The position numbers and the translations under genes were made by a program. Below are positions 18,295 to 30,312 of a stretch of DNA of 38,542 nucleotides, piece after piece; positions within the stretch are counted from its first letter, which is position 1; the number at the start of each line of letters is the position of its first letter. The stretch is from Legionellaceae bacterium (GTDB taxonomy: Bacteria > Pseudomonadota > Gammaproteobacteria > Legionellales > Legionellaceae). The notes under the pieces are model-generated. The model made no database searches and was not told the DNA's origin. It worked only from the letters and a program-made list of their open reading frames with translations. The DNA lies in the NCBI GenBank assembly GCA_947470005.1, contig CANISA010000001.1:1-38542 (forward strand), given 5' to 3'.

Positions 18295-19601
18295 TGCGCG
18301 TCTCCATTGGATTGTGCATACGTTTTATCAATACGGCTTAAGACTTCATGAGGAACCGTAAAATCAGGATTACCCTCTGCATCCGATTCAAGCGACGCAC
18401 TGGCTTGTCGATGCTTGCCGCGCTCAATCACCGCATCATCAGGCTCCAGGTAAAATCCATCTTTAAATACAATCGTCACCAAGTTGCCTGAACCGACTTG
18501 GATTACCGGATGATATTGCTCAGCGCGTTTTACGTAATAACTGGAAAGAACTTCAGCGGCTTTGGATGCACCACCGTAAGCGGCATAAGGTGCAATACTG
18601 CCTGACGGTACAGTTGTCGCTGAACCTAACGCACTGATGCTTTGCACGGATTGTGAATATTGAGCCGCTGAGGCAATACCAGACATAGCACCACTAATAC
18701 CGGCCCATTGCATAACCTTGTTATCGCGCATTAAGGGCTGGCCTTTAATACCGACTTTGCCACCAAAAAACGCCCAACCAGTGACCGTCTTATCAATAAT
18801 CGGCATGCCTTTTTGCGCACACGATAATTTATCCAAGACCACATAGGCGCGTTCACTGGAGATATCGCCATAGGAACTAGCGGTAACAAAACAGCCTTGC
18901 AAGTGAGAGTGTTGACCATTAGGCAATGTGCCGGGTTGCAGGAGTTTGAATAACATCACACCATTGTTTTTTGCCTGTCCATTCACCGACGCATCGGCAT
19001 CAGCGCCACCTAAAACAACAGCCCGCACAAAGGTACCGCTGGGGACATAATGATCTGGATTTAAATGATTATCTGAGGATCGCAGGCGGTGCCCATAATG
19101 AAACGAAACAGCGTGAACACGCGGTTGTGAAACTATTTGCATGCCTAAGTTAGCGCTATTTCTTGCTTGATTAACCATCGCCGTTTGCCATGGAGATGCC
19201 GCATCAGTTAGTGATGTGTTTGAAGCATTATCCGCCACTTGAACCGGTGTGTTGGTAGGTTTTATCGCGCTACTAACCATAGAAGCAAGATTTGCGGTGT
19301 CCTTCTCACGCGCCTTTTCACCTTTATCCATCGCTTCGCGTAGTTGAATCATTTGTACTTTTAAACTTTCCAATTCCGCTTGTTGCGCGGTCAACGCACT
19401 TTCAGCATTAGCTTCACTAAAACTTGCATCCACCACACCAGTTAAATTGGTTGAATCAACGCCTTTCTTTTGATTCCGCGGCTTATCGTGCGAAATCAGT
19501 AGAATGCTTGCCCCTGTGACCAACACACAGCCTAAAATCACCGCCATCAAGGTTCGTCGTTGCGTACGTGCCATCAGTTGATTGATTGAAAAACTAGCCA
19601 T
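18291..19601 (-). CDS. traB: VirB10-like TraB
   Basis: N-terminal TM segment, a coiled-coil/low-complexity linker and a conserved C-terminal beta domain, in the syntenic position. The ATG at 19601 is preceded by GGAG. The track start at 19628 lies inside traK. Confidence 0.85.
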   Translation of the reverse strand: MASFSINQLMARTQRRTLMAVILGCVLVTGASILLISHDKPRNQKKGVDSTNLTGVVDASFSEANAESALTAQQAELESLKVQMIQLREAMDKGEKAREKDTANLASMVSSAIKPTNTPVQVADNASNTSLTDAASPWQTAMVNQARNSANLGMQIVSQPRVHAVSFHYGHRLRSSDNHLNPDHYVPSGTFVRAVVLGGADADASVNGQAKNNGVMLFKLLQPGTLPNGQHSHLQGCFVTASSYGDISSERAYVVLDKLSCAQKGMPIIDKTVTGWAFFGGKVGIKGQPLMRDNKVMQWAGISGAMSGIASAAQYSQSVQSISALGSATTVPSGSIAPYAAYGGASKAAEVLSSYYVKRAEQYHPVIQVGSGNLVTIVFKDGFYLEPDDAVIERGKHRQASASLESDAEGNPDFTVPHEVLSRIDKTYAQSNGDAQ

Positions 19602-20304
19602 GAGCACGCTCCAACACCCGATACACATAAGCCTTTTGTTTAGGCGCTAATGTTGTTGCAGACAAAGACACTGCTTTAACATCGTTATTAGCAAACCAGG
19701 CCTCATTCAAGTCCAATGGCAATTTGCCGCCGTTATAGATTTCCATCACTTCACCGTTTAATTGCAGTCCTTGATAGGTTGTTTTCGGCGTCAACATCAG
19801 CCCTTGTTGCAAACGAATCACACGACCATAGTGATGTTTTTCATCAAAGCCCGTGGGTTTATCTTTGCTTATCATGCTCGTCATGAGGTGGGCGATGGCA
19901 TCACCCATCGGTAGCTTTGCTGACGGATTCAGTGTTGCTTTGACTACTGTAGGATGTACTGCAACAGTCGTTTGTGGCACAAATTCGATTGTTTTACCGA
20001 GGGATGCTTCTGCATTCACCGTCGCTGAAAAATGATGCCCTGATTCCGTGGTTAAAAATAGCGTAAACGGCTCATGACTGACTAACATCACATACAGGCT
20101 GCCATCTTCTTCATTTCGAATCGCCATGCGACCTTCAGGGAAATGCGCTTGGGTAATTTTATCGCCTTTAACCACCAACCGATTATAATTGGAGTCACTC
20201 AATGCGACTGGAATGTCCGTATTATCACGAAACGATTGTGTCGTGAGCGCTTGTGCTGAGGCGGCTGTTAGCAACAAACATATTGCATGAATTAATTTAG
20301 GCAT
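19594..20304 (-). CDS. traK: VirB9/secretin-like TraK
   Basis: Signal peptide, 236 aa, NRLVVKGDKI...PFTLFLTTESG pattern like F TraK, and correct synteny. Confidence 0.82.
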   Translation of the reverse strand: MPKLIHAICLLLTAASAQALTTQSFRDNTDIPVALSDSNYNRLVVKGDKITQAHFPEGRMAIRNEEDGSLYVMLVSHEPFTLFLTTESGHHFSATVNAEASLGKTIEFVPQTTVAVHPTVVKATLNPSAKLPMGDAIAHLMTSMISKDKPTGFDEKHHYGRVIRLQQGLMLTPKTTYQGLQLNGEVMEIYNGGKLPLDLNEAWFANNDVKAVSLSATTLAPKQKAYVYRVLERAHG

Positions 20305-20866
20305 GAGTCTCTTCCTTTACATGAGTAAACTGGGTCACCGTCAATCGACCAAAACGATAACGATATTGCAACGTGTACGTCAGCCGCTCGTCGCGTAAAT
20401 CACGCAGCCCCACCGAGCGCTTTAATACACCGGTTATCATGCTTTGCTGTTTTCCGTTGTCTGCACGAATATCTGAAATCTCAAAATGGCTGGATATCTT
20501 TTTATCCATGATGACTTTGGCTTCCTTTTCGAGTTGAGCTGAAAATGCTGCAAAATGAGCACTATCCACAAAAGCCAACAAGCGCTTATGGTTAGCACGT
20601 ACCGTTTCGGGGGTAACGTTCAACCGTGAGTAGATAAAGTTCTCACTCATCAGCGATAAATAATGCGTATCCACCATCGCATCACTTTTCATATAACTTG
20701 ACCCACCAAAAAATGGCGTGATTTCTACCCGTTGGTGAACACTTGTGTAAAGTGCCAAACCACCCATCAAGACGTTTGTGATGAGAAGCCCAAACACGAG
20801 TGCGACCATTAAATTAAAGCGTGCGGCCAATTGGCTGAATCGATGTTGCTGTGCATTAAAATTCAT
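20297..20866 (-). CDS. traE: F-type pilus assembly protein TraE
   Basis: 189 aa (F TraE is 188 aa) with an N-terminal TM anchor. It lies between traL and traK. Confidence 0.85.
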   Translation of the reverse strand: MNFNAQQHRFSQLAARFNLMVALVFGLLITNVLMGGLALYTSVHQRVEITPFFGGSSYMKSDAMVDTHYLSLMSENFIYSRLNVTPETVRANHKRLLAFVDSAHFAAFSAQLEKEAKVIMDKKISSHFEISDIRADNGKQQSMITGVLKRSVGLRDLRDERLTYTLQYRYRFGRLTVTQFTHVKEETHA

Positions 20867-20875
20867 GTGGTTCTC

Positions 20876-21175
20876 CTACGCCCGCCAGACTCGACGACAT
20901 GAAGCCGGTAAGTGCGATACAATCAATTGCGTGATGCATCGCGGCATATGCCAATAAAGCAACACCAATAAATACCGTGGTCCGTGACCTTGCTTTAACA
21001 CTTTTAAGATCCCGTACAATCCAAAACATAAACACCCCACCAAAATCTTGTGATTTGATGCCACGAGCAACATTAGTCCCAATAAGGCCACCAACAACTC
21101 ATCGAGGGTTAAACTCATGTAGCGTTTCGGCGCATCCAAATGGCTTATCACTCGATACAAGGTGGGGTTATGCAC
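20876..21175 (-). CDS. traL: F-type pilus assembly protein TraL
   Basis: HLDAPKRYMSLTLDELLVALLG motif followed by TM helices. GTG start with GGAGG 7 nt upstream. Confidence 0.8.
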   Translation of the reverse strand: MHNPTLYRVISHLDAPKRYMSLTLDELLVALLGLMLLVASNHKILVGCLCFGLYGILKVLKQGHGPRYLLVLLYWHMPRCITQLIVSHLPASCRRVWRA

Positions 21176-21178
21176 GAC

Positions 21179-21472
21179 TCATCCTCCAAATACGAAGGTG
21201 TTAATCAGGAAAGCAGGCAATAGTGCTATCGCAAAAACGCCCACAAACACCATCGGGTTTTTGGTCTTTACCGCCATTGCGGCTGATAAAATAATGTCGA
21301 CTAAAATAAAGACCTTCCAAAACGTGCCTTGTCCACCCAGCATGTCTTGCACGTCACCCGCCATGGCCCCAGCCAATTTATCGGTGGCATAGACTTGACT
21401 GGCCAAGAGTGCACAAGACAATCCAATGCCTATTTTCTTGATACCACTCACTAAGTTTTTATTAATTTTCAC
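21179..21472 (-). CDS. traA: F-type propilin TraA
   Basis: A leader ending VYA/TD is followed by two hydrophobic helices. FWKVFILVDIILSAAMAVKTKNPMVFVGVFAI parallels F pilin VKWVVLAEVLVGAVMYMMTKNVKFLAGFAII. GTG start with AGGAGA upstream. Confidence 0.8.
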   Translation of the reverse strand: MKINKNLVSGIKKIGIGLSCALLASQVYATDKLAGAMAGDVQDMLGGQGTFWKVFILVDIILSAAMAVKTKNPMVFVGVFAIALLPAFLINTFVFGG

Positions 21473-21486
21473 GCGTCTTCTCCTTA

Positions 21487-21981
21487 TTATGGTTTTATGT
21501 TTAACATGGCTTTTATTTTATTAAGATGCATATGTGCCACTGCCGGATCGGCTTTTTGTGATTCTTCTTTTGATTGAAAAAACACATCTGGTTTATGGTA
21601 TGCCTTGCAACATTCAATAAAGTACGGCAACGTCGGAGGAAAAGGGCATTTCTGCAAGCAAAGTTGCAATGCATGTTCAAGACTCTTGTCTTCAAATCCC
21701 ATCAATCCCTCCAACCAAGCTTTTTTGCTATAATCTAAAAATTCGTCCGTTTTATAGATGCTACGCCAAACGTGGCCATACATCGCTGAAAAACGCAGAA
21801 ACAGCCTGTCAATACGCTTTTGATGTCTTGCGACGCTCACTGAATTGGATGACGTTTCTGGAAGATTGGATGCTGTCATCGGCAATGGTCTCGCAGTCTG
21901 GGATATAGTCGACTCCGCCTTTACAGCTCTCCCAGAAAAAATCGACGGGTTGTTTTGTAGCACGTGTTTTATGGGTTGCAT
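21487..21981 (-). CDS. Lambda P-like (replication/helicase-loader N-terminal domain-like) protein
   Basis: KKAWLEGLMGFEDKSLEHALQLCLQKCPFPPTLPYFIECCKA resembles lambda P QWVLAFRENGITTMEQVNAGMRVARRQNRPFLPSPGQFVAWCRE. The ATG at 21981 has AGGAG 7 nt upstream. Alternative starts are 22029 and 21879. It overlaps the upstream ORF. Confidence 0.45.
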   Translation of the reverse strand: MQPIKHVLQNNPSIFSGRAVKAESTISQTARPLPMTASNLPETSSNSVSVARHQKRIDRLFLRFSAMYGHVWRSIYKTDEFLDYSKKAWLEGLMGFEDKSLEHALQLCLQKCPFPPTLPYFIECCKAYHKPDVFFQSKEESQKADPAVAHMHLNKIKAMLNIKP

Positions 21982-22732
21982 TTGTTTTCTCCTGTAATTT
22001 GCTTGTGTTGATATCATCTTCCCAGCCACGTTGAGCTAGCCAATTCGCAGGGTATCGCCAATGTGGTACCCAAAGCCCTGCGGATTGTTGTTGCTGGTGA
22101 TGGTTGAGTTGCGTGTCCAATGCCATCATGATTTTGGAAAATAAAACCTCATCAGGATTTAGTTTTTGAAACTCATTCCATGTGTGGGTTTTGTTTTGTG
22201 GTTGAGGGTAGCTTTCCCAAAAATTTTCGAAAAATTTGCTTAAACAAATATACTTATTTTCTGAGTTATGAGGTGTGTCGGCCTGAGCTGTTTTTCTTAT
22301 GCCGGCCTGTTTGTTGGTATTTTTGTAAGTAGTTGATTTTACATCTGTATAACATACATTTTGCGTGTCGACTTCAGATGTCGGCCTTGTGCCTGCCTTG
22401 TTTTGGACGGAGTTATTCGTTTCAGCTAATAAGCATTTTAAAATCAAATTCTTTTCAGTTGATTGAATCGCGACAAGGCCAGCTCGCTCAAGCGATTTTA
22501 CAGCACGCCTCGCTTGTTGATGACTGGGATATTCGGCTTTTACACCAGGAATAGGTGCTACATACAAGACCTCACGTAATGACTGATAACTGATCTTACG
22601 TTTGATACCAACGAGACAAGTTTGCAGATCCATGTAAGGACGGATCCCCATGATATAAGTGACTCGTTGGATCAAAGGTAGCTCCATCAGTGCTGTTAAC
22701 TCTTGAGAGTTGATAAACAAAAAATCCATCAT
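21809..22732 (-). CDS. Winged-helix replication-initiator-like (phage O/DnaD-like) protein
   Basis: The N-terminal about 100 aa (LTALMELPLIQRVTYIMGIRPYMD...ISYQSLREVL...ARRAVKSLERAGLV) look like the wHTH of phage/ICE replication initiators. The C-terminal FENFWESYPQPQNK...ANWLAQRGWEDD motif is common in phage replication-associated proteins. Confidence 0.45.
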   Translation of the reverse strand: MMDFLFINSQELTALMELPLIQRVTYIMGIRPYMDLQTCLVGIKRKISYQSLREVLYVAPIPGVKAEYPSHQQARRAVKSLERAGLVAIQSTEKNLILKCLLAETNNSVQNKAGTRPTSEVDTQNVCYTDVKSTTYKNTNKQAGIRKTAQADTPHNSENKYICLSKFFENFWESYPQPQNKTHTWNEFQKLNPDEVLFSKIMMALDTQLNHHQQQQSAGLWVPHWRYPANWLAQRGWEDDINTSKLQEKTNATHKTRATKQPVDFFWESCKGGVDYIPDCETIADDSIQSSRNVIQFSERRKTSKAY

Positions 22733-22826
22733 CTTATTATTAATCCCGCTCGTTTTTATTTTCTATTTATGGTAAATTAATCATGGAATACAATGTTAAC
22801 TTACTCTTTACGTGTAAATAAATCAC

Positions 22827-22854
22827 ATAATAGCACTAAAAGAGTAAATTGCAA
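22827..22854 (-). promoter_or_regulatory. Predicted sigma70-type promoter driving the O/P-like + tra operon
   Basis: On the minus strand: TTGCAA (22854-22849), a 16-nt spacer, then TATTAT (22832-22827). The 9-bp inverted repeat TTACTCTTT (22801-22809) / AAAGAGTAA (22839-22847) brackets the -10 element. Confidence 0.4.
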
Positions 22855-22885
22855 GTGTGTAAACGACAAATATTGGAAATTTCTA

Positions 22886-23563
22886 ATGAATCTTAAAGAA
22901 GAAATTGGTCGGCGTATTTTAGCGGCACGTAAAGGTAAAGGATTAACGAGAAAAGCGCTCGCTGACCTTACTGATGATCTGAAACAATCAAGGATTAACA
23001 ATTGGGAGCGAGGTGAACGAACCCCCGGGCCTGAAGAAATAAAACAGCTTGCAAAAGTACTGGATGTTTCTGCGGCGTATCTAATGTGCCTCACGAACCA
23101 ACAACAAACAGACCCACTTAAGAGTATTCCAGGGCTTGGCGCTTTAATTCCATTACTCGACGCTAAACAAGCTTCTGATCCCATTGCAACTACAACTGCA
23201 ATCAAAAATATGCTCGATCACAAAGATGTAATGTTTATTCCTCTTGGTACTGCAGTGAGCGGGCAATTGGGTAAATATGCATTTGCGTTAAAGATGCAAG
23301 ATGACAGTATGGTTCCTGAGCTTAAATTGAATGATGTATTAATCATTGATCCAGACAAAAGACCACATCCAGGGCAGTTTGCCGTTGCTCGAATCGGAGA
23401 AAACAGCGACGTTATTGTTCGCCGCTATAAGCAACTTTCAGCCTCAACAGACAACCAACAGTTTGAGTTATTGGCTGAAAATAAACACTGGGCTGACGTT
23501 AAAGATAGTACTCAATGTCAATTAGTTGGTACTGTGTGTGGGTTAATTAGGGCATTGGAATAG
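22886..23563 (+). CDS. HTH(XRE)-S24 peptidase-fold repressor (CI/LexA/SetR-like), copy 1
   Basis: HTH EEIGRRILAARKGKGLTRKALADL...INNWERGERTP and C-terminal S24 fold MQDDSMVPELKLNDVLIIDPD...GQFAVARIG. The likely start is the MNLKEE ATG at 22886; the track starts at 22793. It is divergent from the tra operon. Confidence 0.82.
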   Translation: MNLKEEIGRRILAARKGKGLTRKALADLTDDLKQSRINNWERGERTPGPEEIKQLAKVLDVSAAYLMCLTNQQQTDPLKSIPGLGALIPLLDAKQASDPIATTTAIKNMLDHKDVMFIPLGTAVSGQLGKYAFALKMQDDSMVPELKLNDVLIIDPDKRPHPGQFAVARIGENSDVIVRRYKQLSASTDNQQFELLAENKHWADVKDSTQCQLVGTVCGLIRALE

Positions 23564-23575
23564 CATATTACAACT

Positions 23576-23604
23576 TTGTAACCGATATGTGAGTTTTTTA
23601 AAAT
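23576..23604 (+). promoter_or_regulatory. Predicted promoter of the serine-hydrolase gene
   Basis: TTGTAA (23576-23581), a 17-nt spacer, then TAAAAT (23599-23604), about 20 nt upstream of the GTG start at 23626. Confidence 0.3.
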
Positions 23605-23625
23605 AGTGTCAAAAAGTGAGCTTAC

Positions 23626-24729
23626 GTGAAAAACAAATTATTTTTGACTCTCATCTTACTAGCACCAGCTGTTTTTGGAGCAAAAGCTGAAAGTCTACAA
23701 AATGAATTGAATATTTGGAGAACCGAAAATCATATCACCAGTGTGATAGTGAGCGTGCAAGATAGCACGGGAAAAATAACAGATCTTGTTAGTGGAACAA
23801 CCGTGTTAAATGGAAAAACGCCTATAAGTGCGAAGAATTTGTTTGGGGTAGGTAGCATTACCAAAACGTTTGTGTCCGCAACTATTTTGCAACTACAAGA
23901 AGAGCATAAATTAAAATTAGATGATCGACTGAAAAACTACTTTCCAGAATACCCGCTTTGGAAAAATATTACGATTCGTCAGCTTCTCAATATGACCAGT
24001 GGAATTTATAATTATAATGATTCATTGGTGTATCAAAAGCTAAGAGATGCCGAGCCTAAAACGGTGGTTCCATCTAAAACACTTATTGATATTGCCTATC
24101 AAAGCACGCCTTATTTTGCTCCGACTAAAGGCTGGCATTATTCAAATACTAATTATCTTTTGTTAGGTCTAATAATAGAAAAGGTGACCCATCAACCGTT
24201 ATCCGAAGTGCTTAAGCAACGAATTTTCAACCCCTTAAAACTCAACAACACCTTTTATAGTGCTGGTTTTTATCCTGCTAATGTTACTAAGCGTATGGCG
24301 CATGGATATTACAAAGGTAAAGATATGAGTCATTTTAATGCAAGTATAGTTGGGGTAGGTTCGGCTGGGGCAATGGTAATGAATAGTCATGATCTTCTTA
24401 CTTGGGCTCACGCATTATTTACTCCAGGCATTATTTTAAGTAAAAAGAGCATACATGATCTTCAGAAAACTGCCCCTGACAAATACTCCAAAGCGCCGTT
24501 TCCTATTGGTAGTCATTTTGGACTTGGCGTCATTTCGCTTGACGTACCCGAATTGGGAATCATTTGGTTCTATACAGGCGTGATAAATGGATATACAAGC
24601 GTTTTTATTTGGTTGCCTTCTCAGCATAAAAGCATAGCGGTACAAGTGGCTACTTGGCCCGCACCTCATTTTAAAGTGGTATTTCCTAACCAGGATATTA
24701 TGAAAAAAATATTACGATTTGCCGCTTAA
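23626..24729 (+). CDS. Secreted serine hydrolase of the class-C beta-lactamase / DD-peptidase fold
   Basis: Signal peptide MKNKLFLTLILLAPAVFGA. SxxK motif GVGSITKTF, YxN motif HYSNTNY and a later GVGSAGAMVMNSHDL segment typical of the beta-lactamase-related family. Confidence 0.85.
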   Translation: MKNKLFLTLILLAPAVFGAKAESLQNELNIWRTENHITSVIVSVQDSTGKITDLVSGTTVLNGKTPISAKNLFGVGSITKTFVSATILQLQEEHKLKLDDRLKNYFPEYPLWKNITIRQLLNMTSGIYNYNDSLVYQKLRDAEPKTVVPSKTLIDIAYQSTPYFAPTKGWHYSNTNYLLLGLIIEKVTHQPLSEVLKQRIFNPLKLNNTFYSAGFYPANVTKRMAHGYYKGKDMSHFNASIVGVGSAGAMVMNSHDLLTWAHALFTPGIILSKKSIHDLQKTAPDKYSKAPFPIGSHFGLGVISLDVPELGIIWFYTGVINGYTSVFIWLPSQHKSIAVQVATWPAPHFKVVFPNQDIMKKILRFAA

Positions 24730-24759
24730 TTTAGCTATTTAATCACAAAAGGTTAATTA

Positions 24760-26214
24760 TTATTTTAGCTTTGTTTTTAGATGTGAAGCAGACTCTTCTT
24801 CATCGCCACCGAGGTCATCCATTGGAGTATGGGTATCAATAATCGTCTTATCTTTTTCATGGTCAACACTATCTTTGTAATACTGCACCATGCGTTTTTG
24901 GTTGATCCAGACTAATCCATCAATTAACTTATCTTGCCATTCAGCAAAACAATGGTCACCGTGATAAATATCGAAATGGCAAGATAAGTTTCTGTCTTTT
25001 AAAAAAGCGGCGAAATGTTCACTTGCATCTACCTGAGTAACACCGACATCAGTTATTTGTTTTCCTGACGGAGCTTGAGAATAGACTCCCGTTTCCAGCT
25101 GTCCCACATTTAAATAAAAGCATTGTTGTTGAGCGAATTCATTATGAGGATAATGTTTATCTTCGAGTTTATGCTGTAGCCCTTCTGTAGCTTCAAATCC
25201 ATGCGATGTCATACTACCCATCCAGTAAGAACCAGATTGACTGATAATATTACCAAAAACTTCAGGATGTCTGGTTGCGATATGCGTAGCTCCATTCCCA
25301 CCCATACTAAAACCAGCGATTGTAACATCCGATGGATCTGTGGATGCTCTAGGATAGTCCCGGCGTATTTTCGAAACGAATTCATCTGCTACAAAATCAG
25401 CAAACAATTCGGCCTCTCTACTACAACCATATTCGATATCCCGATCTTCCGAATTAAGATAGACCGTTATTGTCGGTTTGATTTTACGCTCTTTCATGGC
25501 CTGCTCCATAATGGCAGGTGCTTTCATACGTTTAATTGTTTCATATCCGTCAAGATGAATGAGTAATTTGTATGGCCCCGTATAACTAGGATCAGTTGGA
25601 GGTATATGGATCCAGTAACTTCTTGATTTATCTTGATAAGAGGGGACATGACTCGACAAAGCAGATTCATTAAAATTGAATTCTGCTGAGATCAATCGTT
25701 GCGATCTGTCTAGAGACTCCATAATACCAGGCAATGAAGTTTGCTCAACATGTTGACGTGGCCTTGCTCTGGGCATTTCAGCAATATATTGGGCATCATC
25801 ATCACCCCATCCATCTATTTTGTAGGAAGAAAAAGGAGGTGAGACCAGATTACCTATATATTCACCTGTATCTAATTTTTTACCATTTTCCAAATATTGA
25901 AAAGATATCCTTGCATCACTGGGGGTATGTTTTATTGGCATGATCCAAATGTCATTTTCTATTTGGCTAAATTGACCGAAGCTCTGCATAGAGGGATCAT
26001 ACACTGAACTAATTAGTTCCACTTTTTTGGTATCGGAATTTCCACGATAAATAAAAATTAAATCGCAAGACCCATCTGGTTGTATTGAGACGAATGGATT
26101 GTCGACCTTAGACCAAATTTCATTCTGTTCATTAATATCAGCGGCATTACTTAAGGCGTCAACTAACGTTTCTAGGGTCGTAATTTCAGGATATTGAGGC
26201 AACTTTACCTCCAT
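24760..26214 (-). CDS. Enterochelin-esterase (Fes)-like alpha/beta hydrolase
   Basis: An N-terminal beta-rich domain (DLIFIYRGNSDTKKVELIS...DIWIMPIK...ISFQY) is followed by an esterase domain with the nucleophile elbow IAGFSMGG and a distal HGDH. The start is either ATG 26214 or TTG 26202 preceded by GGAGG. Confidence 0.68.
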   Translation of the reverse strand: MEVKLPQYPEITTLETLVDALSNAADINEQNEIWSKVDNPFVSIQPDGSCDLIFIYRGNSDTKKVELISSVYDPSMQSFGQFSQIENDIWIMPIKHTPSDARISFQYLENGKKLDTGEYIGNLVSPPFSSYKIDGWGDDDAQYIAEMPRARPRQHVEQTSLPGIMESLDRSQRLISAEFNFNESALSSHVPSYQDKSRSYWIHIPPTDPSYTGPYKLLIHLDGYETIKRMKAPAIMEQAMKERKIKPTITVYLNSEDRDIEYGCSREAELFADFVADEFVSKIRRDYPRASTDPSDVTIAGFSMGGNGATHIATRHPEVFGNIISQSGSYWMGSMTSHGFEATEGLQHKLEDKHYPHNEFAQQQCFYLNVGQLETGVYSQAPSGKQITDVGVTQVDASEHFAAFLKDRNLSCHFDIYHGDHCFAEWQDKLIDGLVWINQKRMVQYYKDSVDHEKDKTIIDTHTPMDDLGGDEEESASHLKTKLK

Positions 26215-26230
26215 TATTCGGCTGTATTCA

Positions 26231-26731
26231 CTAAGAAAATTGCAGTTTAGGTTTTAAGTATATATATAATTCATGAAATAATTCACAACATTCTTCATAA
26301 ATACCCGGACAACTTGATTCGCGAGGTCCCCCGATATTGAGAGTATGAATGTTATTTTCTGTGCACCAATTCAATATAGTTTCTGCAGTACCTTCTTTCT
26401 CAGCCAAACTAATAATAAGATGAGGCCTTTCTAGCCTCAGAGCTTCATCTATTGTTAACTGTGTCCCGTCTTTTATTGCTTCTGGTAGTGGTAAAGATGG
26501 CACAATAATCAAAGTGCCATCTGAATCGCGAACATTTAATTTGGTTCTTTCGGAAGGGACAGATGTAGTTGCTTCTATCAACGAGGCATGCATCTCTAAG
26601 ATATTCCGTCCATTTTCATCCAATCCCCCCCTGGGGCACCAACCACCAATAGAAATACCACATTCAACTGCCATATCCAGGGCGGCTTGATCAACACCTG
26701 TTTGACCACCTGAAACAATTTTTTCAATCAT
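26231..26731 (-). CDS. SLOG-superfamily 'putative molybdenum-carrier'/YpsA-like protein
   Basis: MIEKIVSGGQTGVDQAALDMAVECGISIGGWCPRGG...RTKLNVRDSDGTLII...LNIGGPRES matches the hallmark GGQTG.D.AAL...GGWCP.G...N..DSDGTL...AGPR layout. The ATG at 26731 overlaps the upstream stop by 8 nt. Confidence 0.8.
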   Translation of the reverse strand: MIEKIVSGGQTGVDQAALDMAVECGISIGGWCPRGGLDENGRNILEMHASLIEATTSVPSERTKLNVRDSDGTLIIVPSLPLPEAIKDGTQLTIDEALRLERPHLIISLAEKEGTAETILNWCTENNIHTLNIGGPRESSCPGIYEECCELFHELYIYLKPKLQFS

Positions 26732-27461
26732 AAGACAAATCCTGGTTCGTTTTTGCATACTTAAATGGTGTAAATTTATTGGGGAAATCGTAAATATCAA
26801 TTCCCGTTAGGTTTTTGAGGTAGTTTACTAAAAAACTTGCCGGTGCTGCCAGCAAAATGCTGTAAATGGCCTTAATTGAGAAACTAATGGCCACGACTTT
26901 CATAATATTGTGAAGAGGAATGGATGAGATTTCCATCATCACAATCGCTACAAAAGAATAAAGGGCTTCTGAAAATGTTGATGAGCCTAGACTCCTTAAC
27001 CAAAAGTAACGCCCCTTAAGCAGTATTTTCCAACGGGATAACACATACGAATTGGTTAAGTTCGCAACAATATAAGCGATGAAGCCACTAATATTGATAC
27101 GTAGCAATGATAAACCAAGAACATAACTGTATGACTCTTGCTCTTTAAAAAACGAAGGATGTGGTGCTATCAACGCTAGCTGACAAATAACAACAAAAAA
27201 TGTTTGCGCTAAAAATCCGGTGATAATCACAGAACGCGCTATTTTATAGCCATAAATTTCCGTAATGATATCATCAAAAATGAATATCAGTGGCGATGTA
27301 AATGTACCGCCTAAAACAAAAAACGCATCAATTCCGATATAACGGTTGGTTAAAACAGCATTACAGAGCATGATGCTCATGTAAAACATGCTGATCAAAA
27401 TAAGAACTTTATACCCGTGTAGATTTTCAATTACGTTCTGCTTGTTATGGTGCTCATTCAT
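26724..27461 (-). CDS. VUT/YhhQ-family transporter (queuosine-precursor transporter family)
   Basis: A polytopic membrane protein with SPLIFIFDDIITEIYGYKIAR and FWLRSLGSSTFSEALYSFVAI, matching the DUF165/YhhQ signatures. The ATG at 27461 lies 7 nt after the upstream stop. Confidence 0.75.
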   Translation of the reverse strand: MNEHHNKQNVIENLHGYKVLILISMFYMSIMLCNAVLTNRYIGIDAFFVLGGTFTSPLIFIFDDIITEIYGYKIARSVIITGFLAQTFFVVICQLALIAPHPSFFKEQESYSYVLGLSLLRINISGFIAYIVANLTNSYVLSRWKILLKGRYFWLRSLGSSTFSEALYSFVAIVMMEISSIPLHNIMKVVAISFSIKAIYSILLAAPASFLVNYLKNLTGIDIYDFPNKFTPFKYAKTNQDLSYD

Positions 27462-27468
27462 TGCAGTC

Positions 27469-28056
27469 TCATTTTTCAACTAGTCGGAGATGGGGGGCTT
27501 TTGTTTTAGATAAACCATTTTCTTCAATTTTTGGGTTCGCTAATTTAAGCCCAGCTAGCACACCAATACAAAAAGCCTGTACCGCATCAAATTCTTCGAT
27601 GAGCGACCTGGATAATGCAATATCTCTTGGATCCATCAGAAATTGCTCACCTGTAATTTTAGATTCAAATCCCAATAAACCATTTCGATTTTGGTACAGA
27701 AGATGATTATTTCCATACCTAGAGACGGAATATTTGGAGAACACGCTTCTAGGTTTCACTTGCGCCTTTACGTTCTGAGTATCAAATTGAGTGGTTTTCT
27801 CATACTCAATTCCAATATAGCAGCCTTGAATCGGGTGTAATCCGTATAAGATATCCTCATCAAATACAATATCTTGAATGACTGCATCAAAAACGGCTTT
27901 TGTATTAATGCATTGCATTTTGAAATACTCCACCTGGCCTTTAGTACAGAAATCAACAATTTTGTATAAAATAAAGTCGTTTAAATCCACTTTATTCGTC
28001 GTCCTAGACATGAAACTTGCAACCATCTTTTTAAATGGCAGCGCATACACATTCAT
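27469..28056 (-). CDS. Hypothetical protein (ORFan) with an apparent internal duplication
   Basis: 195-aa ORF. Its ATG abuts the stop of the upstream repressor gene (TAAATG), with GGAGGG 4 nt upstream. I recognise no family motif. Confidence 0.6.
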   Translation of the reverse strand: MNVYALPFKKMVASFMSRTTNKVDLNDFILYKIVDFCTKGQVEYFKMQCINTKAVFDAVIQDIVFDEDILYGLHPIQGCYIGIEYEKTTQFDTQNVKAQVKPRSVFSKYSVSRYGNNHLLYQNRNGLLGFESKITGEQFLMDPRDIALSRSLIEEFDAVQAFCIGVLAGLKLANPKIEENGLSKTKAPHLRLVEK

Positions 28057-28752
28057 TTATCCCTCCGTGTGCAAAGGTCGCATCTTCCTGTTATAAAAAA
28101 GAGTTAAAAAAACCACACCTAATATTTCGTGTTCCTCTTTAGAAAATTTCAATATTGGAGAGCCTTGATTAATAGGATGTAATTGCCATTCTGGTGGATC
28201 AACAAATAGCTCTCTTAATGTCAATTCATTATTCTGGCGCAAATTAATGAGAACAAGATCACCGTCTGTGGCTGATAAATCAGGATCCACAATAAAAAGA
28301 GTACCTTGTTGAAAACGGGGATGCATGGAAGGCCGGCTTTCTAACGCGAATGATCGTGGGCTAACGTTTTCGTTTTTTCCAACGGTCACAGGTACCCATT
28401 CTTGCCATTGGCTTAGGTCAATCGCATCTATATTTTTAGCTGATTCCCAATCTAATGCAGGAATAAATAAAGGTTTGGTTTGACCGATAACGCCGAAATG
28501 AGCTACTTCCTCAGTTGCAATAAGATTATCAATTGAGACTTTAAAATAATCAGCAATGGCTTTCAACGTCGATATTCTTGGATCTGTTGTTTCCCCAGAT
28601 AGTAACCGCTTTATCGAAATTGGTGGAATATTAAGATCTTGAGCCACTTTATTTTCAGTTGTTTTCTTTAACGCGATAAAGCGTGCCAGATTTTCGGCAA
28701 TACTGCATCGTTGCGTTAAGTCTAAATTTAGGTGTTCTGCATTCACGTGCAT
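28057..28752 (-). CDS. HTH(XRE)-S24 peptidase-fold repressor (CI/LexA-like), copy 2
   Basis: HTH IAENLARFIALKKTTENKVAQDLNIPPISIKRLLSGE and C-terminal S24 fold ALESRPSMHPRFQQGTLFIVDPD...GDLVLINL. It is divergent from the Cro-like/Xis-like genes. Confidence 0.8.
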   Translation of the reverse strand: MHVNAEHLNLDLTQRCSIAENLARFIALKKTTENKVAQDLNIPPISIKRLLSGETTDPRISTLKAIADYFKVSIDNLIATEEVAHFGVIGQTKPLFIPALDWESAKNIDAIDLSQWQEWVPVTVGKNENVSPRSFALESRPSMHPRFQQGTLFIVDPDLSATDGDLVLINLRQNNELTLRELFVDPPEWQLHPINQGSPILKFSKEEHEILGVVFLTLFYNRKMRPLHTEG

Positions 28753-28778
28753 TCTTAGTCAGTTGTTATGAAGAAATG

Positions 28779-28903
28779 ATACATCAATGTATTAAATAAA
28801 AAAACAATAATATTAAATTTATTTAAAAATACAAAATTAACAAACAACATTGTTGACTTTATCAAACATTATTGTTTATATTCGTGACTTAATTGTTTGT
28901 GAC
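28779..28903. promoter_or_regulatory. Divergent promoter/operator region of a CI/Cro-type switch
   Basis: Palindromes: ATACA-N4-TGTAT (28779-28792), CAACA-T-TGTTG (28845-28855) and AAACA-N4-TGTTT (28864-28877). Plus-strand promoter: TTGACT (28853-28858), 18 nt, TATATT (28877-28882). Minus-strand promoter: TTGTAT (28834-28829), 16 nt, TATTAT (28812-28807). Confidence 0.5.
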
Positions 28904-28949
28904 GATTAATTGGCCTCATTAAATAATAAAACTAAATGTAAGGAACACA

Positions 28950-29189
28950 ATGATGATGCATCACCACTCGAAATTGCAAATCTACAAAGGAATTATTCAA
29001 TACTTGCTGGATTCTACCAACTACACAATCAAAAATATTGCCGAGGTTACTAACTCCTCAGTTAAAAATATCCGCACTATCTATTGCGAGGATCAGATCC
29101 CAGCACATTTCTCAGAGATCAATTTAGTAAAACTCTATCACATGATGCTTGAATTAAATTTACATGAATTCAATGACTCAAGGAATTAA
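28950..29189 (+). CDS. Small HTH protein (Cro-like candidate)
   Basis: 79 aa. YTIKNIAEVTNSSVKNIRTIY looks like a helix-turn-helix. AGGAA lies upstream of the ATG. It is the first gene divergent from the repressor. Confidence 0.5.
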   Translation: MMMHHHSKLQIYKGIIQYLLDSTNYTIKNIAEVTNSSVKNIRTIYCEDQIPAHFSEINLVKLYHMMLELNLHEFNDSRN

Positions 29190-29233
29190 ACAGGTGGCAA
29201 CGGCAAAACGAAATGGAAATAATAGAGGATCGA

Positions 29234-29449
29234 ATGATGCAAAATACAACTTCTTATGAAATTACACAGCAAATTTTTTTTATTAACGATCTTGAACGAT
29301 TGATTGGGCGCAACCGAGTTACGCTTCGCAGGTGGTGGTTAATCGGAAAATTTCCAAAGCCCGTAAAATTAAATCATTCCACCTTGGCTTGGCATCGTGA
29401 TGCTATCGAACAATGGATTAATCAAAGTATTAAGCTTGGTGAAATCTAG
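29234..29449 (+). CDS. AlpA/Xis-family excisionase-like transcriptional regulator
   Basis: FFINDLERLIGRNRVTLRRWWLIGKFPKPVKLNHSTLAWHRDAIEQWI fits the AlpA/prophage CP4-57 regulator pattern. The ATG at 29234 is preceded by AGAGGA. The track start is 29213. Confidence 0.75.
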   Translation: MMQNTTSYEITQQIFFINDLERLIGRNRVTLRRWWLIGKFPKPVKLNHSTLAWHRDAIEQWINQSIKLGEI

Positions 29450-29496
29450 AACCTACCATTCAATATGACTTATCGTCAGTACCTTTTATAATTTTT

Positions 29497-29521
29497 AGCA
29501 GGCCGTGAGCCTGCTTTTTTT
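29497..29521 (+). terminator. Rho-independent terminator after the xis-like gene
   Basis: AGCAGGC (29497-29503), loop CGTGA, GCCTGCT (29509-29515), followed by a T run to 29521. Confidence 0.7.
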
Positions 29522-29674
29522 GTCTTCATATAAAAAAATATAACGCTCATTGCAAGAAATAATAAATTGAATCTGATTTTTAAAGTACCCTGCAAAGTGC
29601 CCATTATTCATTAATTCGGCCGTTAGCCAATTCTAACCAGAGGTGTAACGCCATTGATTTTTAAAGGATTTAAC

Positions 29675-29751
29675 TGGTCGGGACGGAAGGATTTGAACCT
29701 TCGACCACTAGCACCCCATGCTAGTACGCTACCAGGCTGCGCTACGCCCCG
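29675..29751 (-). tRNA. tRNA-Pro (anticodon GGG), 77 nt with encoded CCA
   Basis: The reverse strand folds by hand into a cloverleaf: acceptor CGGGGCG/CGTCCCG (C1-G72), D arm GCGC-AGCCTGGTA-GCGT, anticodon arm CTAGC-AUGGGGU-GCUAG (U33, GGG, G37), variable TGGTC, T arm GAAGG-TTCAAAT-CCTTC, then ACCA. Confidence 0.93.
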
Positions 29752-29762
29752 ACTGCGGACGA

Positions 29763-29821: not shown

Positions 29822-30208
29822 TTACGTCGCGGTGCAGCTGGCTACAATGGTTGTTGACCCTTGATTAAGTAGTTCAACTTTAGCACCTGGAAGTGCGGTG
29901 ATGTAGACCACCTCTCTAGGCTGGAGAGTCAACGTCATGACATCGCCGGAAGACAAGTTCCTATTATTGATTGAGCCCGTTTTACGTAACACTTTGAACG
30001 AAACAATGTTGTTTGCTTCAGTGCTTTTAATGGTGCAACTGGCCTTGACTGTCCACATGAATACGTTAGAAAAAACTTGAGGGTCATTTATCGGCAGTTC
30101 GTAATCGACGGCTGGCCCGATTTGAAACGTGTGTTGCGTTGCTGAAAAAGCATGGGTCGCCAGTAGGCATCCCAGTCCCAAAAGTACCACTCCGATGTTT
30201 CGTTTCAT
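29822..30208 (-). CDS. Small secreted protein of unknown function
   Basis: Signal peptide [23 protein letters not shown] and two Cys in the mature part. GGGGA lies 6 nt upstream of the ATG at 30208. The track start is 30235. Confidence 0.55.
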
Positions 30209-30312
30209 TGATGTCCCCTTAATGAGCCGTTGCATTTTTTTTAAACTATTATGATCATCTATAAGATGTCTACAAGGAGAGGCATTGTATCATACATGTT
30301 GCATTAAGGTAT

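Follow-up and report, generated by a model that had tools for sequence, protein, structure and literature searches.

A conserved repressor-led four-gene operon in Legionellales integrative elements: a possible lambda-like switch with a small-molecule uptake cassette

Introduction

What is a tightly packed, repressor-led operon doing beside the excision genes of a Legionellaceae mobile element? The element in the window (the whole 38,542-nt stretch of DNA analyzed) ends at a tRNA-Pro gene, and the initial annotation described near this end five minus-strand genes forming one operon in a variable cargo slot, in a combination matching no known system. All five genes are present as described, and the combination is indeed absent from PADLOC and from the literature searched. 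The unit that is conserved, however, has four genes, and it lies outside the cargo slot.

Structure of the operon and its surroundings

The operon and the features that surround it are as follows:

28057..28752, minus strand: S24rep, CI-like HTH and S24-fold repressor, first gene of the operon (Pfam HTH_26/HTH_3 and Peptidase_S24)
27469..28056, minus strand: DUFx, 195 aa, two predicted beta3-alpha3 repeats and a conserved C-terminal LRLVK tail
26724..27461, minus strand: VUT/QPTR (YhhQ-family) integral membrane permease (PF02592, Vut_1, E 8e-33)
26231..26731, minus strand: cpYpsA, SLOG-fold, "putative molybdenum carrier" (PF12694, E 9e-45)
24760..26214, minus strand: esterase (PF00756), cargo 16 nt behind cpYpsA
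23581..26267: window-specific cargo insert between cpYpsA and lvrR (beta-lactamase-like gene and esterase)
23626-24729: beta-lactamase-like gene within the insert
22793-23563: lvrR
21487-22732: lvrA/B-like genes
29675..29751, minus strand: tRNA-Pro(GGG), integration site at the right end of the element

The packing is close throughout, and each junction first reported was confirmed from the sequence. The repressor stop abuts the DUFx start (TAAATG, 28059-28054, with GGAGGG just upstream), 7 nt separate the DUFx stop at 27469 from the VUT ATG at 27461, the VUT and cpYpsA frames share 8 nt (26731-26724), and a 16-nt gap leads from cpYpsA to the esterase ATG at 26214. An alternative VUT start (TTG, 27479) would give an 11-nt overlap with DUFx, as in relatives, whose module junctions are also tight or overlapping. 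Profile searches upheld the domain calls (HTH-S24, VUT/YhhQ, SLOG YpsA-like, esterase). S24rep matches the PHROG 4 transcriptional repressor (E 5e-20), and cpYpsA is homologous to PDB 3IMK (E 4e-25). The esterase belongs to PF00756, but its likeness to Fes is distant only (NF007758, 77 bits against a cut-off of 222).

The element has an F-type tra region (TraC, TraG_N, TraH, TraE, TraL, TrwC relaxase, TraD-type coupling protein). GC content is 35-40% between 22 and 29 kb; the tra region has 43-48%, and the chromosomal flank, where astA, putA, and proQ lie past the tRNA-Pro gene, has 47-50%. In blastn comparisons of the window with L008 and L022, homology ends at 23580 and resumes at about 26235-26268; lvrR directly follows cpYpsA in L022, and this gap is filled by different inserts in the window and L008. 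The true cargo slot is therefore the interval between cpYpsA and lvrR. The esterase does not recur beside the module at other loci and is unrelated, lineage-specific local cargo. Thus the five genes and their packing stand as first reported, with the esterase outside the conserved unit.

Conservation of the four-gene module

The order S24rep, DUFx, VUT, cpYpsA is conserved across 61 distinct loci, and its recurrence in dozens of independent loci is more than chance. The refuting case named in the initial annotation, homologues that never co-occur outside this locus, does not hold. S24rep is directly upstream of DUFx in 38 of 48 loci, VUT adjoins DUFx in 43 of 49, and cpYpsA follows VUT in 36 of 42. 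The link of DUFx with VUT (47/49 loci) is closer than that with S24rep. Six of the 48 loci with enough upstream sequence have no S24rep within 3.5 kb of DUFx, DUFx-VUT-cpYpsA is still present in L012/L042, L037, and L083, and at several further loci the repressor is downstream of DUFx and convergent.

A tRNA or tmRNA gene lies 1-5 kb from the module in 11 of 22 loci scanned, as well as in L003 and the window, and the same tRNA-Pro adjoins it in L008, L022, and L028. The carrier elements have different T4SS types (F-type in the window, P-type in L003). The four-gene unit is conserved element backbone rather than cargo, because it is kept at the tRNA/tmRNA-proximal end of islands that differ in T4SS type.

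The cpYpsA position is exchangeable. Variants carry an asparaginase, an M19 dipeptidase, an FAD oxidase, an enolase-superfamily (MR/MLE) enzyme, or a threonine-aldolase-like (Beta_elim_lyase) enzyme, while retaining S24rep, DUFx, and VUT; in L059, the threonine-aldolase-like gene comes after a VUT that belongs to the same clade (61% identity). Neither S24rep nor DUFx diverges more in modules with a different enzyme, which makes it less likely that either of them senses the substrate of that enzyme.

DUFx, first labeled an ORFan, has at least 137 close homologues and belongs to a sizeable family of about 400 clusters at 50% identity, all stand-alone proteins of about 180-200 aa from Legionellales-type bacteria. 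It has no match in Pfam, NCBIfam, PADLOC, PHROG, or PDB, and these comparisons mark it as a new, Legionellales-restricted protein family. No gene of the module evolves faster (mean pairwise identity 48%), and DUFx is the one module part without nucleotide homology between the window and L022. The internal duplication proposed earlier appears in the predicted structure as two beta3-alpha3 units (AF2 pLDDT 76 for the whole protein, 89 for domain 1), but is weak in sequence (hhalign E 0.002, probability 14%). The predicted structure has no significant Foldseek neighbor. As DUFx has no recognizable fold, any role for it is a guess.

The operator region and the repressor

Between S24rep and the divergent cro-like and xis genes lie three candidate operators of the form ACA-N4-TGT:

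28780..28791: O3, TACATTGATGTA on the minus strand, 63 nt from O2, overlapping the putative repressor-operon -10 (TATCAT)
28843..28854: O2, AACAACATTGTT, 22 nt from O1, abutting or overlapping the -35 TTGACT of the rightward promoter
28865..28876: O1, AACATTATTGTT on the plus strand, putative operator in the spacer of the rightward cro-like promoter
28853..28882, plus strand: sigma-70-like promoter for cro-like/xis, TTGACT-18-TATATT (10/12 matches, consensus match only)
28950..29189, plus strand: Cro-like small protein, divergent from the repressor
29213..29449, plus strand: AlpA-type excisionase/regulator, xis (PF05930, E 1e-4; PHROG 66 excisionase, E 4e-7)
29497..29515, plus strand: terminator-like hairpin and T-run closing the cro-like/xis unit

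The three-site layout with its 22-nt and 63-nt spacing is found in the window and in L001, L003, L007, L008, L015, L016, L018, L022, and L028. ACA-N4-TGT palindromes occur upstream of S24rep at 7.7/kb versus a background of 0.34/kb, and the AACA-N4-TGTT class is present in 24 of 26 upstream regions (5.2/kb versus 0.11/kb). O1 and O2 lie on the promoter-like site facing the cro-like gene, in a region where promoter-like consensus matches are in total not above chance; the repressor-operon promoter has a poor -35. The operon and the divergent genes do share a structured operator region, as had been proposed. The Cro-like protein has no family match in Pfam or PHROG, and no integrase adjoins xis in the window. 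Cro-like, xis, and integrase genes lie beside the module in 10-14 of 37 loci; the cro-like/xis match, with the Cro-like homologue divergent from S24rep, reaches only 14 of these 37 clustered loci, several of the others being on short contigs.

S24rep of the window has Ser142 but carries Arg180 at the catalytic Lys position. Across the family, the LexA K156 position is Arg in 42 of 46 members, and the catalytic Ser is kept in 41 of 46 (Ala or Phe in the other five). The family linker is unconserved and lacks an Ala-Gly cleavage site. With Arg at the Lys position and no such site, S24rep is probably not RecA-cleavable.

A possible lambda-like switch with an uptake cassette

The leading explanation, tentative and somewhat short of probable, is that the block represents the repressor arm of a switch like that of lambda, combined with a small-molecule uptake and processing cassette in the backbone of Legionellales integrative elements. 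S24rep, its S24 domain serving as a non-catalytic dimerization or sensing domain, would bind the three operators. At O1 and O2 it would shut the rightward cro-like/xis promoter and keep the element integrated, and at O3 it would limit its own operon. DUFx (predicted to be a two-repeat cytoplasmic protein), the permease, and cpYpsA would then be co-expressed in the integrated state. The permease would import a small metabolite, and cpYpsA would bind or hydrolyze that metabolite or a nucleotide derived from it. Release of the switch would come through the cassette ligand or DUFx rather than RecA, as expected of a repressor without the LexA-type Lys and cleavage site. The esterase would be later cargo, possibly expressed by operon read-through.

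That the four-gene operon takes up and processes a small molecule is probable; the family matches of VUT and the SLOG protein are strong, and the enzyme position is exchangeable while the other three genes stay. The cassette can exist without excision genes, and the excision link may be secondary, because six of 48 loci have no nearby S24rep and most of the 37 have no cro-like/xis match.

Alternative explanations

The permease might instead import preQ0, preQ1, or queuine as queuosine-precursor salvage cargo, which is possible but unlikely. Here cpYpsA, possibly with DUFx, would act on queuosine nucleosides or nucleotides to free or convert their base, in the manner of QueK, Qng1, and QueL in other systems; S24rep would be a local regulator only, its proximity to xis incidental. 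VUT exceeds the cut-off of the "queuosine precursor transporter" model TIGR00697 (78 bits against 51), and its orthologues carry the same NCBI name. N-glycosidases such as LOG belong to the SLOG fold, the hosts are Legionellales with an intracellular lifestyle, and the loci without a nearby S24rep also speak for this reading. Known QPTR/YhhQ members take up preQ0/preQ1 (E. coli) or queuine (Chlamydia), and a glycosidase is required in salvage routes (PMC5372724, PMC11130926, PMC11570991). However, the COG1738 family is heterogeneous (PMC5372724), and VUT reaches only 35 bits on PRK11212, the E. coli-type equivalog model (cut-off 252). No preQ1 riboswitch or other Rfam match was found, the module contains no que or tgt gene, and the ligand suggested by family annotation has no support in sequence context. 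None of the variant enzymes, whether threonine-aldolase-like (L059) or acting on asparagine, dipeptides, or hydroxy acids, fits 7-deazaguanine chemistry. Cargo is not usually kept on elements that are about 50% diverged and differ in T4SS type.

A nucleotide-centered conflict or defense system, as the initial annotation suggested, is improbable. The SLOG protein would sense or generate a nucleotide signal, with the other genes as effectors. In lambda, rexAB lies in an operon expressed with the repressor, a position that the block shares on its own mobile element, and DUFx evolves rapidly. Members of the SLOG/YpsA group are known from predicted conflict systems based on nucleotide signals and from Thoeris ThsA (PMC6459960, PMC7272460). 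Yet PADLOC has no match for DUFx, VUT, cpYpsA, or the esterase, no DUFx relatives were found in IMG/VR viral contigs, and effector-type domains (nuclease, TIR, SIR2, pore-forming) are absent. Moreover, cpYpsA is replaced in variant modules by ordinary amino-acid- or peptide-metabolizing enzymes, and its stand-alone paralogues in L. micdadei and L. cardiaca lie in housekeeping contexts.

A toxin-antitoxin (addiction) pair of S24rep and DUFx stabilizing the island, with permease and SLOG genes as passengers, would suit an HTH gene placed first, a translationally coupled second gene, palindromic promoter sites suggesting autoregulation, and a position at the island end, but it is highly improbable: an unguarded toxin should not persist where S24rep is missing or convergent downstream, DUFx keeps closer company with VUT, and it resembles no known toxin family (Pfam, PADLOC, PHROG).

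Comparison with known systems

As in SLOG conflict systems and ThsA, the Rossmannoid fold of cpYpsA, with GGQTGVD and GGPRE-type motifs, is expected to bind a nucleotide or ligand. In contrast to those systems, no signal-generating enzyme or effector is near cpYpsA; its partner is a permease, and its gene is interchangeable with metabolic enzymes.

The module shares with queuosine salvage (E. coli YhhQ, C. trachomatis QPTR, C. difficile QueK/QueL) a COG1738/PF02592 permease passing TIGR00697 and an intracellular host lifestyle, and its pairing of a permease with a possible glycosidase is reminiscent of how indirect queuine salvage is laid out. It differs in lacking a riboswitch or que/tgt link and in having a permease far removed from the E. 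coli equivalog model; neither cpYpsA nor any of its variants is a known queuosine-salvage enzyme, and the module is under a CI-like regulator on mobile elements.

The lvrRABC regulatory module, specific to Legionella and found on T4SS islands, has an HTH-S24 regulator as its first gene (PMC3864950). The present module is likewise HTH-S24-led on Legionella T4SS islands, and the window carries both. However, S24rep lies at the att/xis end, and the genes it heads are DUFx, VUT, and cpYpsA instead of lvrA, lvrB, and one of CsrA type; lvrR and S24rep are only remote paralogues (22% identity over 63 aa).

In the lambda CI/Cro region and in SetR of SXT-type ICEs, an HTH-S24 repressor is divergent from a Cro-like gene and excision functions. 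The module has the same arrangement, with three spaced palindromic putative operators between two promoters, and its accessory genes would share the repressor's transcript while the element is integrated, as rexAB shares that of cI. Unlike lambda and SetR, S24rep has Arg for the catalytic Lys and no Ala-Gly site, making RecA induction unlikely, and the repressor operon is also found without cro or xis. In place of exclusion genes it carries a permease, a SLOG protein, and a member of a new family as passengers.

Opine-regulated Ti-plasmid transfer through AccR/OccR is a substrate-inducible uptake operon gating conjugation. If the switch-and-cassette model is right, the repressor of an import and processing operon would similarly control transfer or excision genes, here with an HTH-S24 repressor and a VUT transporter, presumptive ligand sensing, and no quorum-sensing layer seen; an imported metabolite would then time element mobility.

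Organization and Conservation of the Module

The gene block runs along the minus strand from 28752 to 24760 and comprises five genes with the junctions that were first noted, all of which are confirmed: TAAATG at 28059-28054, a 7-nt gap, an 8-nt overlap, and a 16-nt gap. Family searches upheld each of the domain assignments in the initial annotation.

28057-28752, minus strand: S24rep, a CI-like repressor (HTH and Peptidase_S24)
27469-28056, minus strand: DUFx, the former "ORFan" (no family match)
26724-27461, minus strand: VUT permease (PF02592, E 8e-33; TIGR00697 over its cut-off)
26231-26731, minus strand: cpYpsA (PF12694, E 9e-45; homologue of PDB 3IMK)
24760-26214, minus strand: esterase (PF00756; only distantly Fes-like)

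The permease scores 114 bits against PF02592 (cut-off 27) and 77.7 bits against TIGR00697 (cut-off 50.95). cpYpsA aligns to positions 1-143 of the 145 in PF12694 and matches PDB 3IMK with an E-value of 4e-25; we know of no established biochemical function for this SLOG family. The esterase does not reach the cut-off of the Fes equivalog NF007758 (77 bits against 222), the alignment is restricted to the esterase domain, and family searches found no Fes N-terminal domain. Terminator-like matches inside the VUT and cpYpsA genes were dismissed as chance (4 found, 3.5 expected).

The gene combination recurs outside the window for S24rep, DUFx, VUT, and cpYpsA, but not for the esterase, which has no counterpart beside the module in the other loci compared. 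Pooling 35 genome loci and 41 metagenome loci yields 61 distinct DUFx loci, in which neighbors were scored only where the contig extends far enough. S24rep lies directly upstream of DUFx in 38 of 48 scorable loci and within 3.5 kb, in either orientation, in 42 of 48; VUT is adjacent to DUFx in 43/49 and within 1.8 kb in 47/49; and cpYpsA follows VUT in 36 of 42. DNA homology between the window and the closest element, L008, extends over 18943-23580 and 26268-29752, so that 23581-26267, which holds a beta-lactamase-like gene and the esterase, is a window-specific segment. These boundaries rule out the proposed five-gene unit in favor of one of four genes. In the related element L022, cpYpsA is followed directly by lvrR, the gene of a second HTH-S24 regulator, with nothing between them. 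The block had been read as cargo in a cargo slot; the limits of homology to L008 and the gene order in L022 instead place the variable slot in the gap between cpYpsA and lvrR and make the four-gene block part of the element backbone.

The beta-lactamase-like gene of the insert encodes a PF00144 beta-lactamase/PBP-like serine hydrolase (23626-24729, plus strand) with a signal-peptide-like N-terminus, and is convergent with the esterase gene. The esterase C-terminus (window 24760-24830) is acidic and Glu-rich, ending ...PMDDLGGDEEESASHLKTKLK. An E-block is a signal of Dot/Icm-translocated Legionella effectors; by analogy, the resemblance of this stretch to an E-block might mark the cargo esterase as a secreted effector.

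Sequence identity varies from gene to gene within the module. The window and L008 share 95-98% identity in S24rep, DUFx, and VUT (DUFx 95%), but only 71% in cpYpsA; relative to L022, cpYpsA reaches 83% and DUFx falls to 48%, the DUFx gene being the sole part of the module without nucleotide homology between these two elements. This mosaic (26231-28056) suggests gene-by-gene recombination between related elements.

The DUFx Protein Family

DUFx is not an ORFan, as at least 137 close homologues exist. A library-wide profile search recovers 400 clusters at 50% identity, all of them stand-alone proteins of about 180-200 aa with no domain fusions hinting at function; where named, the homologues come only from Legionellaceae, Coxiellaceae, or unclassified gammaproteobacterial MAGs, and none of the viral contigs scanned carries a relative. 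The predicted structure consists of two beta3-alpha3 repeats, with a pLDDT of 76 overall and 89 for repeat 1. The family has several invariant residues (Tyr, Gln, Asp, His, Cys, Glu, and Arg), and its LRLVK C-terminus is conserved. Foldseek searches with the full model gave no significant neighbor (best E 0.07 in PDB and 0.0016 in BFVD, TM <0.2), and repeat 1, modelled on its own with high confidence, likewise had none, its best matches being chromo/PX-like (TMq 0.45, E >0.4). Neither the family profile against PDB sequences nor Pfam scans of individual members (E up to 1) gave a consistent match; a weak match to DUF3023 was rejected because it is absent from other family members. DUFx is thus a genuinely new protein family without a known fold relative; at about 400 clusters, it is compact and testable.

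The Repressor and Its Candidate Operators

S24rep has the layout of LexA/CI-type repressors, with an HTH_26/HTH_3 domain at residues 21-80 and a C-terminal Peptidase_S24 domain at 141-215, and matches the PHROG 4 repressor family. In an alignment to a LexA reference sequence, S24rep keeps the Ser (Ser142) but has Arg180 opposite LexA K156, leaving the Ser/Lys pair (S119, K156) incomplete; the spacing from Ser to the basic residue (38 residues, 37 in LexA) agrees. Among 46 family members, the K156 position is Arg in 42, Lys in three, and Gln in one, and the S119 position is Ser in 41, Phe in three, and Ala in two, so that five of the 46 lack the Ser. In S24rep, the linker (residues 81-100) contains no Ala-Gly or Cys-Gly dipeptide, and the segment is unconserved in the family alignment. 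The Arg in place of Lys156, the loss of Ser, and the want of a conserved Ala-Gly together point to a non-autocleaving pseudo-peptidase domain, and hence to no RecA-type induction. Judged from these residues, S24rep appears to be a CI-like repressor that has lost the SOS-type cleavage chemistry.

Palindromes of the form ACA-N4-TGT occur upstream of S24rep genes at 7.7 per kb, compared with 0.34 per kb in a 634-kb background and 0.32 per kb in composition-matched shuffles, and the stricter AACA-N4-TGTT form is found in 24 of 26 upstream regions. The window has three such candidate operators between S24rep and the divergent cro-like and xis genes.

28865-28876: O1, candidate operator palindrome
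28843-28854: O2, candidate operator palindrome
28780-28791: O3, candidate operator palindrome overlapping the likely -10 of the repressor operon

Their spacings (22 nt and 63 nt) are both repeated in nine loci besides the window. O1 and O2 are placed on a promoter-like TTGACT-18-TATATT site facing the cro-like gene, and a terminator-like hairpin (29497-29515) closes the cro-like and alpA-type xis genes. The layout of O1-O3 follows the logic of lambda OR, with a putative assignment of proteins to sites. The window contains five AACA-N4-TGTT sites in all (1.4 expected by chance). An additional exact operator-type palindrome, AACAATGTTGTT, lies at 30002-30013, just beyond the element, inside an ORF (29822-30235) that encodes a small secreted-looking protein.

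Position within Integrative Elements

The module resides in an integrative conjugative element whose F-type transfer genes extend across 1-21 kb (TraC, TraG_N, TraH, TraE, TraL, TrbI, a TrwC relaxase, and a TrwB/TraD coupling protein). Conjugation machinery, relaxase, coupling protein, an AlpA-type xis, and insertion at a tRNA gene are all present, and the nearest relatives are uncultured Legionellaceae MAGs.

21.5-23.6 kb: lvrR/lvrA/lvrB-like module (cf. PMC3864950)
29675-29751: tRNA-Pro, with the chromosomal genes astA, proQ, and putA beyond it

The window does not reach the left end of the element, and no integrase lies between the alpA-type xis and tRNA-Pro (29450-29675). The element's integrase must therefore be encoded at the far end, beyond the window, or be supplied in trans. 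The tRNA-Pro relatives L008, L022, and L028 likewise have no integrase in this interval; an integrase-xis-cro-like order is present in the related islands L001 and L003.

The segment 21179-23563 is the known Legionella lvr module: an lvrR-like HTH-S24 regulator gene (22793-23563, plus strand) diverges from lvrA/lvrB-like genes, which are followed by TraL/TraE. This regulator is a remote paralogue of S24rep (22% identity over 63 aa) and likewise has Arg at the aligned Lys position.

The module is typical of island ends. Of 37 loci, 14 have a cro-like gene diverging from S24rep, about 14 have excisionase-like genes, and 10 have an integrase. Of 22 loci scanned for a tRNA or tmRNA gene, 11 have one 1-5 kb upstream, and so do L003 and the window. 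The accompanying T4SS is F-type in the window and P-type (TrbC/VirB3/VirB4) in the L. impletisoli island, L003, and chromosomal-looking loci also exist (e.g., the Coxiella MAG locus L005). Cultured carriers of the module include Legionella impletisoli, L. rubrilucens, L. quinlivanii, and Legionella sp. MW5194. At L024 and its JGI twin, smpB and tmRNA lie upstream of the module, two CsrA plus response-regulator pairs precede it, and a Bro-N protein and a bacterial-microcompartment cluster (BMC/EutN, aldehyde dehydrogenase) come after it; this locus is probably another island with unusual cargo.

An Exchangeable Enzyme and the Possible Role of the Cassette

At several loci the position of cpYpsA is taken by a different enzyme.

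L005, L061, L066: FAD-linked oxidase
L030: asparaginase
L071: M19 dipeptidase
L040, second module: MR/MLE enolase-superfamily enzyme (the gene at the DUFx position is not a confirmed family member)
L059: Beta_elim_lyase (threonine-aldolase-like)

In these variants, VUT identity falls to 30-38%, save in L059 (61%), and S24rep and DUFx keep their usual 45-49%. The exchange of enzymes and this pattern of identity define a constant core of repressor, DUFx, and permease with an exchangeable processing enzyme, which is the design of a regulated uptake/utilization operon. The second module of L040 (2186-5342, minus strand), which shares its contig with a DUFx-VUT-cpYpsA module, is highly divergent and runs from an S24rep-like gene (23% identity) through a 191-aa protein and VUT (38% identity) to the MR/MLE enzyme; the 191-aa protein bears a faint FKIVE...IIQITNKHTIL likeness to DUFx (hhalign E 0.019).

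We tentatively favor the reading that the locus is a lambda-like, non-SOS switch whose repressor shares its operon with a cassette of genes for taking up and processing a small molecule, with the esterase as appended cargo. SLOG proteins bind or cleave nucleotides (PMC6459960), and a 7-deazapurine or purine-like base is therefore the best-fitting candidate ligand for the cpYpsA type.

It is possible, though unlikely, that the cassette is plain cargo for queuosine-precursor salvage, since VUT exceeds the curated cut-offs of PF02592 and TIGR00697 for QPTR/YhhQ queuosine-precursor transporters. However, TIGR00697 is the sole basis of that label, VUT falls far short of the E. coli-type equivalog model, and its family is a heterogeneous one (PMC5372724). 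At none of the loci examined does the module contain a que or tgt gene (a TGT in L042 is 8 kb away), and Rfam searches at the gathering threshold returned only tRNAs, and no preQ1 riboswitch, in the window, L003, L005, and L042. The label may over-reach, because the partners of these VUT genes in Legionellales range over various amino-acid and peptide enzymes. Were the cassette plain salvage cargo, the result would be a useful annotation and no surprise. The tRNA-guanine transglycosylase of L042 (1588-2772), in a Legionella MAG bearing DUFx-VUT-cpYpsA, has GGETVGF where the substrate-pocket motif of the Zymomonas TGT is GGLAVGE, and an insertion near the zinc site; these differences hint at altered base specificity. 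A eukaryote-type Val233Gly was dropped as evidence, the alignment being ambiguous and the Val apparently retained.

A still more doubtful proposal is a metabolite-gated excision switch, with DUFx as a ligand-dependent co- or anti-repressor of a new class. A small molecule from the host (purine or 7-deazapurine-like, or derived from an amino acid) would enter through the VUT permease and be processed by cpYpsA, and the product would derepress the cro-like and xis genes by way of DUFx, the pseudo-peptidase domain of the CI-like repressor, or both. Excision and transfer of Legionellales ICEs would then be timed by intracellular nutritional state, not by DNA damage.

The nucleotide-centered conflict or defense role first envisaged for the block is improbable: PADLOC-DB 2.0 has no match for DUFx, VUT, cpYpsA, or the esterase (its matches are confined to weak generic HTH ones for the repressor and xis), the module contains no effector domain, and viral contigs lack DUFx relatives. 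Least credible is a toxin-antitoxin pair, which is rejected because DUFx exists without S24rep within 3.5 kb in 6 of 48 loci; in others, S24rep is convergent downstream.

The initial view that the combination matches no described system holds, in that no description of the module was found in the literature searched on cpYpsA, YhhQ in Legionella, and the molybdenum carrier in Legionella. To our knowledge, little is known of what triggers excision or transfer of Legionella islands beyond the lvr/CsrA layer. The module places a candidate input, a permease and a ligand-handling protein, in the operon of the switch repressor. On the favored reading, it would be a switch of the same kind as the CI/Cro-type switches of other elements, with an accessory operon.
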